A stretch of DNA of 64,000 bases from an uncultured virus (IMG/VR IMGVR_UViG_3300046511_000152) (lineage: Duplodnaviria; Heunggongvirae; Uroviricota; Caudoviricetes). The notes beneath the pieces were generated by a model. It was not told the origin of the DNA and ran no database searches. It saw nothing but the letters and a program-made list of their open reading frames with translations. Where the stretch lies: IMG/VR virus record IMGVR_UViG_3300046511_000152; one strand, written 5' to 3'. The translations under genes and the position numbers were made by a program. Positions 5,599 to 21,509 of the stretch are shown here, piece by piece; the first letter of the stretch is position 1, and every line of letters starts with the position of its first letter.

Positions 5599-6029
5599 TC
5601 AACCCTCCTCGGGTCTTGAGTAACTTCCGTGCCCGCATCCGACGTGCCTGCATCCCGAAGTCGAGGCGGTCAGCGATGCCGAGGATCAACGGATCATGAT
5701 CCCCTTCGGATACGAGATGCTGTCCCGCGTCCCGCTCGTATTGCCGGGTCGTGGAGTCTTCCGGTACACCGTCCCACGGGCCATCGAATGGTGCACGCAT
5801 CGCTCGCCTGAAGTCTGGGATGTCGCCATCCTCGTTGTATTCCTCGACCCGCTTATTGTCAAGGGCCTTCATCTTCGCAATGACGTAGAGCCACAGCGTT
5901 GTGTCACTCCATCCTGTCACAGCGAGCACCCGGTCTACGATTTCTTGATGTTCCTCTTGACTCTGGATGATCAGTGTACCCTCCATCCGGAGGCTATCCA
6001 CAAGGTGGTCGAGCCAGTGAGCTTGCTCG

Positions 6030-6566
6030 TCAGTCAGTTGGCGAATAGTGCCCATCATCTTCTCCTTGGTCATCATCATCATCGAGGAACGGGACATCCG
6101 GACTGCTCCCGCTCTTGTAGATGTCATCGAGCAGCTTGTTGAAGCCCTCCGATGACATCACACCCACTACGCCCTCGCCAGCCACGTGCTGGGTCAGGAA
6201 CTTCATCTGCTTCGGCGGCGGTGTGGGCTTGGTGTGGTGTGCGGCCTTCATGTACTCGCGCACGTAGCGCCGGTTCACGCGCGTCCAGCCCACGTAGTCG
6301 AACTGGGTGGGCGTGACGTACGGCGAGTGGTCGTGCGTCGGGTCACCGCATGGCATCGGGAACACCTTGATCAGCATGATCGGTGGCGCAACCGCCAGCA
6401 CCCGGACTACGCTGCCCTCGAAGGAGCGGTCGTGCTTGGATGCGAAGCGTCCCCGCGAGTCGGTGCCCGTGATCAGCGGCCCCTTCGCACACATCAGGTA
6501 CTCACCCGGTCGGACTTCGTCGATAGATTCGATCATGTTGATGTATAGGTGCGTTGAGAAGTGCAC
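6030..6566 (-). CDS. hypothetical protein
   Basis: GTG start inferred from operon packing; acidic C-terminus. Confidence 0.6.
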   Translation of the reverse strand: MHFSTHLYINMIESIDEVRPGEYLMCAKGPLITGTDSRGRFASKHDRSFEGSVVRVLAVAPPIMLIKVFPMPCGDPTHDHSPYVTPTQFDYVGWTRVNRRYVREYMKAAHHTKPTPPPKQMKFLTQHVAGEGVVGVMSSEGFNKLLDDIYKSGSSPDVPFLDDDDDQGEDDGHYSPTD

Positions 6567-6856
6567 CTCATACCCCTCCGTTCTGGAACAGAGCTTCGTT
6601 CTCGCCGATGACCCCCACGTAGAACCACGACTTGTCGGGGACCTCGATGACTGGGAATGTCTTCGCTTCTTGGAAGAGTACCACAACCTCGGTGCCGATT
6701 GCAACCGGAACCTCGACACCGACGATTCGCTGGGCTGCGTCGTCCACGCGGTGGCCGTACAGGCGCACCGGATGAGCCTTCTCACCCTTCCGGCGCGGAC
6801 TCTTACTGTCCTCGACACCGATCAACTGGATCAGGATCGGGTCCTTGATGGGCATC

Positions 6857-7195
6857 TCAGGCCACATCGCAGCACCGCTTGTTCTTCTTCCCGCTGCCAC
6901 ACTTGCACGGCTGGTTGCGCCCTCGCGTGGCTCGGCCGATCACGTACGGCTGCGTCTTGGGCGTCATGGCCGGATGCTGCGAGAACGTCTCGATGAACCA
7001 CTTGACGCTGCGCCGGACAGGCCGGGAGCGCGACGCGAGGGCAAAGAGACGAAGGTCCCCGTCCTTGCTGTTCGTCCACTCCCACGTCCACCAGAGCACG
7101 CGGAACTTCTCGGCCTCCTCATCGACCTCGACCACGCGGCCGTTCATCGGGCCACCGACGAGCTTAACCTTGACCATCACCTTCTCTTCGTTCAT
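6857..7195 (-). CDS. SEC-C motif protein
   Basis: C-terminal GRNQPCKCGSGKKNKRCC matches the SecA zinc-binding SEC-C motif. Confidence 0.8.
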   Translation of the reverse strand: MNEEKVMVKVKLVGGPMNGRVVEVDEEAEKFRVLWWTWEWTNSKDGDLRLFALASRSRPVRRSVKWFIETFSQHPAMTPKTQPYVIGRATRGRNQPCKCGSGKKNKRCCDVA

Positions 7196-7567
7196 CGGGG
7201 GTCCTCACCTGTGATCTCGATTTCTTCCAGCGTGTCACCATCTGCACCCACGCGACGGATCACGACACCCGCGTAGTCCCGTGCTATCTCCAGAGCCACT
7301 CGCCTTGCCGTCTCACGAAACATGAACGGCACTACCACATCCCAACCGGGTCCAGCGGTCACCGCTTCACCTCCCTCTTGGCGAACTTCGCCCTGCGCCA
7401 CTCACTGTTGCGGAACGCGGACTCCCACGTGTGGCCGCGCCCGATGGTGGTCTCGATCTCACCGATCTTCCACACCATGCACGCGAACCCGGGTTCCGTG
7501 AACGCACTGATCGTGCCCATCTCCCCGAACACTTCGCGGGCCTTCAACACAGCTTCTTGTCTTGACA

Positions 7568-11766: not shown

Positions 11767-12532
11767 TTGTGACCTCGCTTCCTGTGTACGGGTGGCTGCG
11801 GCCCGGTGCTCGGGGCGTGCAGCAGGTTCAGTACCAGCACGAACATCACGACGAGTCCTGCGACCATGACAATCATGCCATCCTCATGTGGCTGCGGACC
11901 ACGCGGGGCCGACGCTCACGGGTGCGGAACTTGTAGATGCCATTGAACGCTGTGGTCATGCGCTCCGCGAACGCCTTGGCCTGTTCCATCGTCCAGAAAC
12001 TCTGCTCCAGTTGCCAGCGCCCCGTGGGCATCTGGCACTCGACAACGAACGGGTGCTTGGGGTCGCGACAGGTCACAGCCGCTCGTCCACGAGTGCACGG
12101 ATGAACCGGGCACATTCCTCGATGGTGGGCAGCGTTGCGAGGGGCCCGTTCATTTCCCGCGTGGCGAGGAACACCGCGTAGTCCTTGCCTGCACGCTCGA
12201 CCGTGAAGTCGGTCAGCTTGAACATCACACCACCTCCGTCTTGACTCGCGTGAAGTGAATCATGTCCGACTGCGCGAGCTTCTTGTTGAGTTCCATGCCG
12301 GGGGGCAGGAGCATCACGACCGTACCATCGGGGTACTGGTCGAATACGAACTGTCCCACCGGGGTGTCTATCTTGACGAACGTCGCCTCTTTCAGCGTGA
12401 CCAGCTTGCGTGCATGGTCGTGCAGCGTCCTGTTCTTGTGTGGCACCTTGTGCTCCTGCTGTTGGGGTTGTACCTCTCCATCCGCGTGTTGCGGTAGGCG
12501 TGTACCGACGCCTCGTTCGTTCTGGAGATGCG

Positions 12533-12620
12533 GGGACGCGGCGGGACTCGCACCCACCTACACCCTACTCTCGGGTCATGACTCCCTACCCTCGGGTGAC
12601 TAGTCTCTATGACACGTCCC
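12533..12620 (-). ncRNA. tRNA-like structured element (not a canonical tRNA)
   Basis: Acceptor-like stem GGGACGUG/CGCGUCCC; T-arm GUGGG-UGCGAGU-CCCGC; two CCC-GAG(G/A)GUA-GGG hairpins. Confidence 0.45.
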
Positions 12621-12621
12621 A

Positions 12622-12652
12622 AAAGTGTGCACGGGGCTGGCATCGCCCCGTG
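12622..12652 (-). terminator. possible terminator or processing hairpin after the first early gene
   Basis: CACGGGGC-N7-GCCCCGUG followed by CACACUUUU. Confidence 0.4.
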
Positions 12653-12674
12653 TCTCACGTACAGCGTGCTGGCG

Positions 12675-12863
12675 TTACGCGGCCTTGCGGACCTTGCGGT
12701 AGGCGTTGAGGCCGAGGGTCACGTCCGTGCCGGGGATGACGATGTTGCCATGCGTGCTGGCGACCATCTCGGTCTTGCCCGAGGCGGACGGCCCGAGGTT
12801 CTCGGAGAGCTTGACGAGAATCGTGGCAACGTCGCCCTTGACCGTGATGCTGACGTTCGACAT
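12675..12863 (-). CDS. small phage protein, first gene of the early operon
   Basis: MSNVSITVKGD...GPSASGKT..VASTHGN; strong AGGAG RBS. Confidence 0.8.
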   Translation of the reverse strand: MSNVSITVKGDVATILVKLSENLGPSASGKTEMVASTHGNIVIPGTDVTLGLNAYRKVRKAA

Positions 12864-12885
12864 GGTGAGGCTCCTGTCTGATGCT

Positions 12886-12940
12886 GGTGGTTTCGCCCTG
12901 CTGGGGCTCATTCAGCCAGTGGGTTGACACTGGGACCACC
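12886..12940 (-). ncRNA. type III hammerhead ribozyme (one extra core nucleotide)
   Basis: GGUGGUC^CCAGUG-UCAACC-CACUGG-CUGAAUGA-GCCC-CAGCA-GGGC-GAAACCACC; stems I, II and III perfectly paired; GUC cleavage triplet. Confidence 0.85.
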
Positions 12941-13552
12941 TGCGAGCAAGGTGCTCGGACCGTTTCCGGTGCGTGCACGATGCCCGCGAGGGTGATGGCT
13001 TGCCTGCCTTCGTCCGGGTTTAGCGGTGTGTCACTCTCTTGTCGCTGCGCTGGGCTTGACTCACCTCGTCCCTTGCGGGTTGTGGTCACTGTCGTCGTCG
13101 CGCTGACTGTAGGAGCCGCCGCGTATCGTCCCGGGCTCATATCTGCCGTGCTGCTGCCACTGAGGCGGTCCGGGTCCGCAGCACGCTTCGCATGGGGACC
13201 ACCCTACAGCCTAAGTCGGTCCCCCGGCGTGCTGGTACTACCTTTCGCCGTGGCATCTCTGGCAGTTCGCAGCGTGACCTTTGCATCCCAGTGTGGGGCC
13301 ACGACTGACTGCGTGGCATCGCTCCCATGGACCGGGTGCTCCGGCTTCGGCTGCTATGTGCGGGTGACAGGGTGTCTTTTGACCGCGCCTGCTCGGTTCT
13401 CCGTCTCGCTTGTGTCAGGAGAGAGCCGAAGCACACCTTGGGAGTGTGCGGACGACTTACGTACGCGGCACCTAACGCGGGCTCCGCCCGCCTGCCCCTT
13501 CGCTTTGCCTATCTCGACCGGCCCCTCGCGGGTCCTGCCGTGTTCCGCTGCC
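12934..13552 (-). ncRNA. candidate ~620-nt structured ncRNA / leader RNA
   Basis: Lies between promoter and hammerhead; no credible ORF; nested long-range helices and GNRA hairpins. Confidence 0.65.
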
Positions 13553-13557
13553 CTTAC

Positions 13558-13586
13558 AGCTTATGTCCGCTGTTTCGCGGTGTCAA
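13558..13586 (-). promoter_or_regulatory. sigma70 promoter TTGACA-N17-TAAGCT with A-rich upstream segment
   Basis: Perfect -35, 17-nt spacer, upstream AACGGAGAAAACGAAACGG. Confidence 0.8.
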
Positions 13587-13653
13587 GGGGTCCGTTTCGT
13601 TTTCTCCGTTGGGTTTCGTCCGCCCGGCCGTTTGCCGGGGCACCGAAGTACTG

Positions 13654-13670
13654 TGCAAGGAGCTTGCCAA
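13654..13670 (-). promoter_or_regulatory. sigma54-type -24/-12 site TTGGCAAGCTCCTTGCA
   Basis: Matches YTGGCAC-N5-TTGCW except one base; exact GG-N10-GC spacing. Confidence 0.55.
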
Positions 13671-13743
13671 CGACCGCCCCATTGTGCGGCAACGACTTAC
13701 GAGGTTGTCAAGTCCTGCGTTTGGGCCATCCGCCCCTGTTTGG

Positions 13744-13934
13744 GTGTGTCCATTTTGACACACTCGCTCGTAAGGCGCGGCGCGGCACGGGCTTGGCGGG
13801 TGGGTTGGAGCGCCCAGCGTTTGGGGCATCTGGCGCAGCGCACTGGGCGCGGTGAGAGTTCACACGCCCATTGCAATGTGCACGGTGGGGACCGTGTAGC
13901 ATGTGTCTCCTGAGACACGTGTCCGTTTTGACAC
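13744..13934. repeat. three GTGTC-N6-GACAC palindromes (13746-13761, 13903-13918, 13919-13934)
   Basis: Directly visible; two copies are immediately tandem. Confidence 0.75.
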
Positions 13935-14097
13935 ACCCACGGCGGGGCTCGCGTGTCGTCACACGCACCGGCTGGGGAGGGTGGCCCTCTCGTCACCATG
14001 GGGTGGGGAGGAGACGGGTGGGGGGCACGACCCCAACTCGCGCGCCAGAAGAAAGAGGCAGGGTCCATGTGGCCCGCAGAAAAAAAGGAGTTTCACA

Positions 14098-14724
14098 ATG
14101 GCAGACGAGCCCAAGCGGGGCGCGCCACCGACGCGCAGGGAACAGGCAGAATCGTTCCTGCTGGCGAATCAGGCTGCAAAGGACTCGGAGGTCGCCGCCA
14201 GTACTGGCATTGATAAGGTTACAGTGGGGAGGGCCAGAGCCAACCTGATCAGTCAGGGTCTCCTGCCAGAGTCCACCCGGAAGCGCGCCACGCCCGCGAG
14301 GGCGAAAGCACCCGCCCGGCCGACCGGCCCCCCGCCTGACAGCCTACTGACAGACGCCGACATGCGCGACCTCGAACTGGGCGCGATGACCGACGAGGAC
14401 ACCCGCAAGAAAATCCTCACCGCCCTCCGCAAGATCGCCTTCTCCCCCGGCATCAACACTGAGACGGCCATGAACGCGATGGCCCTGTGGGTCAAGCTCA
14501 AGGACGCCGCCGCCTCCAAGGAACTCGGCCCCGGCAAGCCCCTCACCCGCGCTGACGCCAAGGAGCGCGTCCTCTCGCTCATGAAGGCGGTCGGCTTCGA
14601 CCTGATCTTCGAGTGCTTCCAAGAACTGTTCGTCCCCAAGGAGGCGACCCCCGATGAAGGGCTCGTACCCGCTGAACACCGCGAAGCTCCACCGGGTCCT
14701 GCTGGAGCTACTGCGGCACCCTGA
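14098..14724 (+). CDS. putative terminase small subunit
   Basis: N-terminal HTH-like DSEVAASTGIDKVTVGRAR; first gene of the late block; AAGGAG RBS. Confidence 0.55.
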   Translation: MADEPKRGAPPTRREQAESFLLANQAAKDSEVAASTGIDKVTVGRARANLISQGLLPESTRKRATPARAKAPARPTGPPPDSLLTDADMRDLELGAMTDEDTRKKILTALRKIAFSPGINTETAMNAMALWVKLKDAAASKELGPGKPLTRADAKERVLSLMKAVGFDLIFECFQELFVPKEATPDEGLVPAEHREAPPGPAGATAAP

Positions 14725-16407: not shown

Positions 16408-18279
16408 ATGATCGGCTGGGACACAGACGCAGAGCGCGACCTTTGGCGAGCAATCTGCGCTCCCAACTGCTGGTTCGGCAAGAAGGAGGGTGTGCCAGCA
16501 ACGCACCCTCGTTCTCTCCACTACTTCATCGACCTCTGCTGGGGCACGAAGTTCTACTTCGCCTCACACCCTGAGCAGGCGGTCTGGCTCTACGAGCCGA
16601 TCCACGGTCCGTACCTGACGTGGCTCCAGCACCACATCCTCACGTGGAAGGCCCTCGCCCGCAAGCAGAACATCGCCGCGCAGCAGTACTACATCGCCGT
16701 CGTCCTCCCCCGTGACTTCGGCAAGTCGCTGACCGCTACCAAGGCCGCGATGCTCTGGAACCACCTCGATGAGCCGGACATGAGCACCCTGATCTGCTCG
16801 GCCACCGCCCCCCTCGCCGTCGCGAACGTCAAGGCCATCAAGGCCATCGTCTCCGAAGACAGCGGGCAGGCGTGGTTCACGTGGCTCTACGGCAACTGGA
16901 AGAAGGGCGCGAAGACCTTCGCTGACGAGGCCATCGTCCACGGCTACCGCAAGGAACGCTCCTTGCAGGAAGAGTCGTTCGCCTCGACGGGCGTCGGCGC
17001 TGGTATGACCGGATGGCACCACCGTGTGCACGTCTGGGATGACCCGATCTACATCAACAAGCTGCGCGAGGGCGGCAACTACATGACGGGCGTGCACGAG
17101 GCTGTCAACGCCTCCTTCAACGCCCTCCAGAAGAACGGGCTCCTCATGTTCGTCCTCACCCGTTACCTCGACGATGATGTGGCTGGCCGCCACTTCCGCG
17201 ACGAGGGTGTTGCAACGTGGACTGGGATGCCTTGTCCCAACACGATGCAGTTCGATAAGGTCCCCTTCGGTAAGGGCTCGTGGCACGTCTTCTTCTGGCA
17301 GACCGAAGACGAACTCACGGGTGAGCCGACGCACCCGATCCTGTGGACCAAGGAGAAGATCACCGAGGCCAAGCGACGCAACGCGGAGGACTTCGCGTGC
17401 CAGCAGCAGAACAACCCCGGTACCTCGAACCTCTCCCCGCTCATCGAGTCGCAGCTTCCCGACCTCTTCATCGACTACACGGACTTCTTCTTCCAGATGC
17501 AGACCCTCGGCCATATCGAGGCTGCCTCTGTCCATATCGACACCGCGTTCAAGCGCAAGGAGACCATCGGCAAGGGCGATGACAACGCCATCGGCGTTTG
17601 GCTGCACGACGCCCGCCGCAATGGTATCCTCTACCTCGACACGGACCTCCTGCGCGCCAGCAACGAGTGGCGTGAAGAGGACTTCAACGACGAACTGATC
17701 AAGGTTCTCCTCAACCTCCGCCGACGCCAGATTCGCGTCAAGTGCCTCACGGACGAGGTCGAACCCGGAGGGAAGGCTGGATCGTACAAGAACCGATTGC
17801 TCGGTGTCGTGCGCGCTTCTGGCCTTCGCCTCACAGAAGACCAGTTCATCCAGTTCAACCGCACCACCGACAAGAAGGCTCGCATCCGCACCGGCACGGG
17901 CAACTGGGCCGAGGGCTACGTCCGCATCCTCCTGCACAAGGACAAGCAGGGTCAGTGGATCATCCCGCCTGTCGTTCGCAAGCTCTTCAACCAGATACTC
18001 CGCATCGACGTTGTCACCCACGAGGACATCGCTGACGCCCTCACTGACGGATTCGCCAAAGGCATCTGGCGGCGTCCCGATGTGCGGATGCCCGACACCG
18101 ACGAGGGTGATGTCCCCCGCTACCCGGGTGACGAGGCTCTCCGTTCCTTCTCCAAGCCGCTGACCAACGCAGAAGTCTTCGCGATGATCGACGCACAGAA
18201 GGAGATGAACGAGCACTTCGGCCCGATGCACGGACCAGACGACGGCTACCTCGACGAACCCTACGACCCCAATCGGTAG
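16408..18279 (+). CDS. terL: terminase large subunit
   Basis: Walker A LPRDFGKS, Walker B VHVWDD, nuclease motifs HIDTA and HEDIADALTD. Confidence 0.9.
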   Translation: MIGWDTDAERDLWRAICAPNCWFGKKEGVPATHPRSLHYFIDLCWGTKFYFASHPEQAVWLYEPIHGPYLTWLQHHILTWKALARKQNIAAQQYYIAVVLPRDFGKSLTATKAAMLWNHLDEPDMSTLICSATAPLAVANVKAIKAIVSEDSGQAWFTWLYGNWKKGAKTFADEAIVHGYRKERSLQEESFASTGVGAGMTGWHHRVHVWDDPIYINKLREGGNYMTGVHEAVNASFNALQKNGLLMFVLTRYLDDDVAGRHFRDEGVATWTGMPCPNTMQFDKVPFGKGSWHVFFWQTEDELTGEPTHPILWTKEKITEAKRRNAEDFACQQQNNPGTSNLSPLIESQLPDLFIDYTDFFFQMQTLGHIEAASVHIDTAFKRKETIGKGDDNAIGVWLHDARRNGILYLDTDLLRASNEWREEDFNDELIKVLLNLRRRQIRVKCLTDEVEPGGKAGSYKNRLLGVVRASGLRLTEDQFIQFNRTTDKKARIRTGTGNWAEGYVRILLHKDKQGQWIIPPVVRKLFNQILRIDVVTHEDIADALTDGFAKGIWRRPDVRMPDTDEGDVPRYPGDEALRSFSKPLTNAEVFAMIDAQKEMNEHFGPMHGPDDGYLDEPYDPNR

Positions 18280-21450: not shown

Positions 21451-21509
21451 TGCCAACCCTCGTGACGTGACAACCACCACGAGGAGCCCGCGAGGGCGAA
21501 GGGACACAC

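Follow-up and report, generated by a model that had tools for sequence, protein, structure and literature searches.

A type III hammerhead ribozyme, real, conserved in related phages and probably active, lies just ahead of the first of a run of small phage genes and carries one extra adenosine (A6a) in its catalytic core. We consider it fairly probable that its role is to give the early mRNA a defined 5′ end and to free a leader RNA. The window (the whole stretch of 64,000 nt analyzed here) covers the greater part of the genome of a tailed phage: it includes a terminase gene, and the longest contig bearing the protein of its first small gene, ORF1, is 64,806 nt. From position 12863 the small genes run leftward, and the packaging genes run rightward. 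The first-pass annotation had placed the hammerhead before the first early ribosome-binding site: the Shine–Dalgarno (SD) sequence and the ATG are there, and "early" is a designation that we take from the layout of the genes. That annotation is supported in outline, but it overlooked a conserved, structured leader and the promoter ahead of it. Both the variant core and the placement before a first early phage gene are already known from the literature.

Table 1. Positions of the ribozyme, its parts and the neighboring features in the window
Feature	Position	Strand	Basis
Type III hammerhead ribozyme, A6a core CUGAAUGA	12886..12940	minus	sequence, fold, shuffles, RF00008 score
Stem III, 6 bp, GGUGGU / ACCACC	12940-12935 / 12891-12886	minus	sequence
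C17; GUC triplet	12934; 12936-12934	minus	sequence
Stem I, 6 bp, CCAGUG / CACUGG; loop UCAACC	12933-12928 / 12921-12916	minus	sequence
Core C3-U4-G5-A6-A6a-U7-G8-A9 = CUGAAUGA, 8 nt	12908..12915	minus	sequence
Stem II, 4 bp, GCCC / GGGC; loop CAGCA	12907-12904 / 12898-12895	minus	sequence
GAA, then A15.1 (GAAA block)	12894-12892, then 12891	minus	sequence
SD AGGAG (12875-12871) and ATG (12863) of ORF1	12861..12875	minus	sequence
ORF1, 62-aa all-beta protein, first gene past the ribozyme	12675..12863	minus	model, pLDDT 93.7
Predicted leader RNA freed by the cut	12934..13643	minus	inferred starts
Structured leader domain, ~100 nt, multi-helix, possible pseudoknot	13372..13471	minus	covariation in five sequences
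Sigma-70-like promoter, TTGACA, 17 nt, TAAGCT (weak -10)	13558..13586	minus	by reading the sequence
Sigma-54-type promoter box, GG-N10-GC	13654..13669	minus	consensus match
Terminase large subunit	16408-18279		phrog_38

Anatomy and detection of the ribozyme

Sequence, fold and shuffles all confirm the complete type III hammerhead, with stems of 6, 6 and 4 bp, that had been described at this site, and it lies on the minus strand (Table 1). Three helices surround the core, and stem III is the open one, carrying the 5′ and 3′ ends. The cleavage triplet is of the NUH type, with an A15.1–U16.1 pair (A12891 with U12935) and an unpaired H17, and the GAAA block and the G10.1–C11.1 pair are both present. 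The core does depart from the strict 7-nt CUGANGA, having 8 nt, CUGAAUGA, as the first-pass annotation had noticed; only the strict consensus is barred by this, because the core equals the published active variant A6a. The predicted cut after GUC, between 12934 and 12933, also checks out, and the distance of about 70 nt given from there to the ATG at 12863 is exact. The first base of loop 1 is U and the last base of loop 2 is A, as also in the related phage loci L002 and L125, which would fit a U–A contact between the two loops; no multi-pair pseudoknot between them is visible by eye.

The minimum free energy and centroid folds are both the hammerhead (-25.5 kcal/mol, z -2.73, with 3 of 200 shuffles equally stable). 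It is the sole descriptor match in the 64-kb window (12940-12886), and when the window was dinucleotide-shuffled 300 times and searched on both strands, there was no match at its own stem lengths and one at looser lengths. An Rfam scan of the window returned no family at gathering score, and an all-family scan of 12500-14300 at E ≤ 10 returned two chance-level matches and no hammerhead. In the comparison with Rfam hammerhead models that had been proposed as a check, RF00008 alone, run on contig G001, which is 100% identical to the window over 12600-13700, gave a full-model match of 28.2 bits (E 4.3e-6), below the gathering score of 48.5 bits. Of four records so searched one, L002, clears this cut-off (49.1 bits), and L250 also falls short (23.3 bits) with a canonical core. 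A model made from three distant canonical-core relatives alone scores the window element at 25.4 bits (E 1.6e-4, a rough value). A6a hammerheads can thus score below the Rfam cut-off, and scans therefore miss such ribozymes. Annotated phage records contained one chance-level match of 27 nt.

Two minor features may be recorded here. A weak model match on the plus strand at 21455-21507 (16.5 bits, E 0.082) is a GCCC-GCGA-GGGC hairpin that lacks a CUGA core and is probably not a ribozyme. The ribozyme core also contains an AUG (12911, minus strand) that shares the reading frame of ORF1 (giving a 78-aa ORF) and has no SD; this is probably a coincidence.

In transcripts that begin at 13643 and run into ORF1, the folding model forms all three stems with probabilities of 0.85-0.97. 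For 6 of 12 choices of start and end with at least 150 nt of leader, the probability of stem III is 0.42-0.61, and for a seventh it is 0.02, because of predicted competing pairing with 13082-13109. Such competition would suit a slow or conditional switch, in which A6a and the competing segment leave the ribozyme partly inactive until it is refolded by some signal or protein, so timing the early genes. A6a is indeed slow, slower phage variants have been suggested to be triggered perhaps by conditions or signals (PMC3088659, in the part of the paper available), and a conserved domain of riboswitch size is present in the leader. Nevertheless, we regard a switch as quite unlikely: some orthologues have the canonical core and others A6a, before the same ORF1 and beside either type of leader, and the competing segment is poorly kept in L002. 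We know of no ligand. Unmasking of the ribosome-binding site by cleavage is not supported, since predicted SD–AUG accessibility barely shifts (0.34-0.59 versus 0.37-0.60 on cleavage).

Conservation in related phages

In L002 and L003, which carry ORF1 orthologues, the hammerhead in this position has the canonical core CUGACGA. Before the same ORF1, the core is CUGAAUGA in L125/L126 and canonical in L250. The stem I sequence differs among L002, L003, L125/L126 and L250, yet its pairing is kept in each, and the SD and its spacing are retained in L002, L003 and L125/L126. The wider comparison drew on 49 terminase-linked loci. The scan covered the 25 whose upstream sequence reaches 3.4 kb or more; 19 of them extend to at least 4.9 kb, and 13 of these 19 have a same-strand type III match lying 3.4-4.6 kb away from the start of the terminase. 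After addition of L231, recovered by the model at 45.1 bits, and removal of L228, which ends before the region, a type III hammerhead occupies the syntenic site in 14 of 18 loci, counting as positive L233, L241 and L247/254, which depend on a permissive span (stem I of 104-150 nt). Merging three identical pairs makes this 11 of 15 distinct loci, the window's own copy being among the 11. The gene downstream of the ribozyme varies between relatives, and it is therefore the position that is conserved and not the gene.

The stems covary. Across 20 distinct model matches, in an alignment fitted to the model and including weak matches, 95.9% of cells are paired and 11 of 14 pairs show two-sided change, a level reached in none of 500 shuffles. 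Compensatory change thus maintains the stems among homologues.

At four of the 18 loci (L213, L225, L229 and L248) both descriptor and model find no type III match at the syntenic site. L225 and L229 have a long leader all the same, and the ribozyme is therefore dispensable in the clade. Rfam found nothing in eight relatives that have no strict descriptor match, and in 11 other relatives it found tRNAs in L231 and the L002 hammerhead, nothing else. Ahead of the gene at 78 more distant loci with ORF1 homologues, there was no convincing type III match.

Several relatives are unusual in structure. The type III hammerheads that precede the first leftward gene of L247/L254, L233 and L241 (minus strand) have 104-150 nt within stem I, and the L247 insert includes a T-loop-like hairpin. 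Irregular cores are tolerated in the clade: the core reads CUGAACGA in L253 and has an extra A in L231, and L237 combines U4C with an extra A on either side of stem II. In L003 (2946-2974, plus strand) stem II seems to be duplicated as tandem GCCC/GGGC hairpins with two possible folds, and the cut triplet is GUU. L231 also has eight tRNA genes upstream of the terminase (5883-7302, plus strand).

The extra adenosine in the core

An insertion after A6, named A6a, has been described as active at a low rate and is expected to cost one hydrogen bond (Perreault et al. 2011, PMC3088659, available in part). One row in the text layer of its Fig. S6, reversed, resembles the window core and stands under the heading "marine metagenome"; the core itself is absent from the searchable text of the supplement, the remainder of which may hold similar sequences and a rate for A6a. 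The accessible portions of PMC10085705 and PMC13725137 do not mention the variant.

A scan of viral contigs for the 8-nt core gave 37 matches, 29 of them distinct, and nine of these 29 are complete hammerheads (the window's copy and the L253 record included). All nine read A–U (seven) or A–C (two) at the insertion, compared with 4 of the 20 other matches (Fisher p = 7e-5, with kinship ignored), and inspection by eye makes three of these four hammerheads as well, their stem I being bulged. Among the matches listed at 127 loci in a scan for the canonical core, 122 of 132 distinct ones are complete hammerheads, and 116 of these 122 have a pyrimidine (U or C) as N7; the A is therefore the added base. 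The A6a form is in the minority (9 complete versus at least 122 canonical), and in genome contigs none of the 121 8-nt-core matches listed is a complete hammerhead. The core of the window itself recurs at the orthologous site of L125/L126 and in unrelated viral contigs.

These patterns bear on whether the window holds a decayed, inactive copy in which the extra A is a damaging mutation. The score below the Rfam cut-off, the low activity of A6a and the rarity of complete 8-nt cores would all fit decay. Against it, the same A occurs at the orthologous site in L125/L126, where stem I differs, in L253 and in unrelated phages, and is never another base; all three stems are perfect; and L264 uses A6a three times. 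Decay thus seems very improbable. Rather, because the insertion is invariably A and then a pyrimidine in the complete copies, A6a recurs too specifically for decay and looks selected. It is likely a tolerated natural form of the core that slows the cut without stopping it.

In L264, the three A6a copies have a bulged stem I and stand ahead of three genes. Repeated A6a hammerheads before successive genes were also noted in phages L269, L286, L288, L028 and L008, with two A6a copies beside canonical ones in L028 and one beside a canonical one in L008. A shorter stem I that would offset the extra A was considered and rejected, as stem I and its loop span 17-19 nt with A6a and mostly 18-19 nt with canonical cores.

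The window ribozyme is 87% like that of L125, whose ORF1 is 94% like that of canonical-core L002 and 83% like that of the window. Core state thus does not simply track ancestry, which suggests that modules have been exchanged or the base has been gained or lost repeatedly.

ORF1 and the region beyond it

ORF1 has 540 homologues and matches nothing in Pfam or PHROG, and only hypothetical clusters in the Atlas. Its best E-value against PDB sequences is 0.78, and comparison of the modeled fold found no match. ARAGORN called no tRNA or tmRNA in the window. Just past the ORF1 stop, at 12610-12657 (minus strand), a hairpin with an internal loop is followed by U4; the L003 version has a longer loop. 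It may be a weak terminator, in the place that a type II hammerhead takes in other relatives. A conserved non-coding block follows ORF1 at 12470-12620 (minus strand) and comprises two hairpins, one of them T-arm-like; it is 74-76% like L126 and L250/251 and 91% like L003 over 89 nt. Neither ARAGORN nor Rfam called this block, which we consider a candidate tRNA-like RNA.

In L125, L126, L245 and L250/251 a second, type II hammerhead lies just past the first gene. Across L125, L126, L245, L250/251, L213 and L241 the type II hammerheads have stem III loops of 28-113 nt, and the core in L125 is CUGAACGA. A ribozyme after the first gene raises the thought that the cut in our system is one of two that excise ORF1 RNA, which might be circularizable, or else that cleavage destabilizes the early mRNA through a 5′-OH-tolerant exonuclease, as with glmS, where cleavage reduces expression (PMC6765202, seen in excerpt). 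Such outcomes have, we believe, a low probability. The descriptor finds no second hammerhead in the window, which has the hairpin and U4 after ORF1 instead, and tandem hammerheads gave no spliced or circular products in the work of Perreault et al. (PMC3088659, available sections).

A trans arrangement, with one hammerhead serving many half-sites, was also rejected: the 13-nt substrate matches only itself at one mismatch, and shorter substrate matches are scattered in the window and not placed ahead of early ribosome-binding sites.

Predicted leader RNA and candidate promoters

The putative leader would measure ~710 nt if transcription begins at the sigma-54-like site and ~620 nt if it begins at the sigma-70-like one; both starts are predictions. 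It is 75.7% identical to that of L003 over 571 nt. No conserved ORF led by an SD is found in it, the lone SD-led ATG (13328) being missing in L003, and it has no match in Rfam. It bears some resemblance to raiA (RF03072) and ROOL (RF03087); covariance models of these families matched none of three records at E ≤ 10 in either case, a result that is weak for ROOL, where the controls were also unmatched.

Within the leader, a domain of ~100 nt appears to be structured. Over five sequences and 28 hand-drawn pairs, 97.1% of 139 cells are paired and no shuffle of 500 reaches as high, a comparison to be read with the facts that the structure was drawn from the same five sequences and that their kinship alone can beat shuffles. 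Two-sided change occurs in 8 of the 28 pairs, and in the pseudoknot helix a single pair varies. A model of the domain applied to 30 sources matched the five training sequences and none of 25 other loci.

GG-N10-GC is the sigma-54 promoter consensus, and the box ahead of the leader is the sole strict match in the window, with 0.11 expected by chance. Of the 25 terminase loci, 23 have a looser pattern upstream, as do L002, L125 and L126. Such boxes are grouped between the divergent genes in L219-L254, with as many as seven in one phage and either strand used. Because they occupy both strands in several relatives, they may instead mark a phage-specific DNA site; if they are true sigma-54 promoters, such clusters are unusual for a phage. 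The TTGACA of the sigma-70-like site (13586-13558), which a promoter scanner did not call, is present in L003 and L237 and missing in L002. Farther upstream, at ~13690-13710 and ~13745-13765 (minus strand), are two motifs resembling DNA sites, an imperfect inverted repeat, oppositely oriented in L125/L126, and a palindrome, also in L002 and L003; they are possibly packaging or regulator sites.

Discussion

How might this element act? The anatomy, conservation and covariation are our observations, and the chemistry of cleavage and the activity of A6a come from the literature. Expression, cleavage in vivo, use of the promoters, any effect on stability and any job of the leader we infer. Transcription would start near 13643, driven by the sigma-54-like box, and perhaps also near 13551, at the sigma-70-like site, producing in order a folded leader of 0.6-0.7 kb, the ribozyme, ORF1 and the series of small genes. 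With stem III closed, the RNA would be cut after C12934, while it is being transcribed or shortly afterwards. The leader would depart as a free non-coding RNA with a 2′,3′-cyclic phosphate, and the mRNA would begin with a 5′-OH immediately at the stem I hairpin, 70 nt upstream of the AUG. The message would thus acquire a uniform 5′ end, independent of promoter choice and of the fold of the leader, and this 5′-OH end would probably resist decay that depends on a 5′-monophosphate. The basis of the stability argument is the behavior of 5′-OH ends toward RNase E and in insulator ribozymes. That the ribozyme separates leader from mRNA had been proposed at the outset; conservation in relatives supports the proposal. 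A precedent is halovirus HF2, in which a transcript 5′ end maps within 3 nt of the cut site of its hammerhead (PMC3088659, in the text available).

The same cut could matter mainly for the other product, maturing the leader into a non-coding RNA with a defined 3′ end and leaving the new mRNA end as a by-product. The covarying domain in five sequences and the 76% identity with L003 over 571 nt speak for this, as does the fact that two of the four loci without the type III ribozyme, L213 and L248, appear by eye to have no long leader either. On the other hand, the domain is missing (0 of 25 other loci) in distant relatives that keep the ribozyme, L225/L229 have the leader without the ribozyme, and an SD and start codon lie within 60 nt downstream of seven of the eight type III A6a hammerheads, a position that favors the mRNA as the product that matters. 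It is therefore unlikely, in our view, that the cut serves mainly to mature the leader, and we retain the reading in which the cut sets the mRNA end and frees the leader.

The element can be placed among known systems as follows. With RF00008 type III hammerheads it shares topology, the G-U-C triplet, C3–G8, G10.1–C11.1, A15.1–U16.1 and GAAA, but it differs in the extra A after A6, in its score under gathering, and in its setting in the 5′ leader of a DNA phage rather than a viroid or satellite RNA. With the A6a variant of Perreault et al. (PMC3088659, as far as available) it shares the insertion after A6. There it was a rare case; here we count nine distinct complete viral hammerheads as well as the copies with bulged stems, always A–Y, and the form alternates with canonical cores among orthologues. 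The HHphage of haloviruses HF1/HF2 is likewise a variant-core hammerhead, just upstream of the ORF that opens an early polycistronic transcript, but there the insertion is near C3, the host is archaeal and the start codon is 13 nt away; the available text mentions neither a long structured leader nor a sigma-54 box (PMC3088659). Finally, polycistronic prophage RNAs with clustered hammerheads flanking genes (PMC3088659, PMC6765202, both seen in part) resemble L125, L126, L245 and L250, which have type III and type II together, whereas the window has the first one only. In the literature we searched, which covered few subscription papers, we did not find phage leaders driven by sigma-54 and ending in a hammerhead.

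What the hammerhead does in bacteria and phages is still regarded as open (PMC6765202, as available). The ribozyme alone is ordinary; a released leader and a sigma-54-like early promoter are of more interest. Added here are the A–Y specificity of the insertion, the clade-wide layout of promoter, leader and ribozyme, and the unclassified leader domain. Tentatively, and with less conviction than we attach to the role of the cut, we suggest that the clade may share an early cassette: a sigma-54-type promoter, a structured leader of 0.3-0.7 kb that would be a functional RNA of an undescribed family and would in the window include a pseudoknotted domain of ~100 nt, and a hammerhead that would release it, with CUGAAYGA as a selected second core that sets the release rate and is interchangeable with the canonical one. 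The clade is a natural comparison set for such ideas, offering at the same site a canonical or an A6a core, with or without a second ribozyme and with or without the leader.
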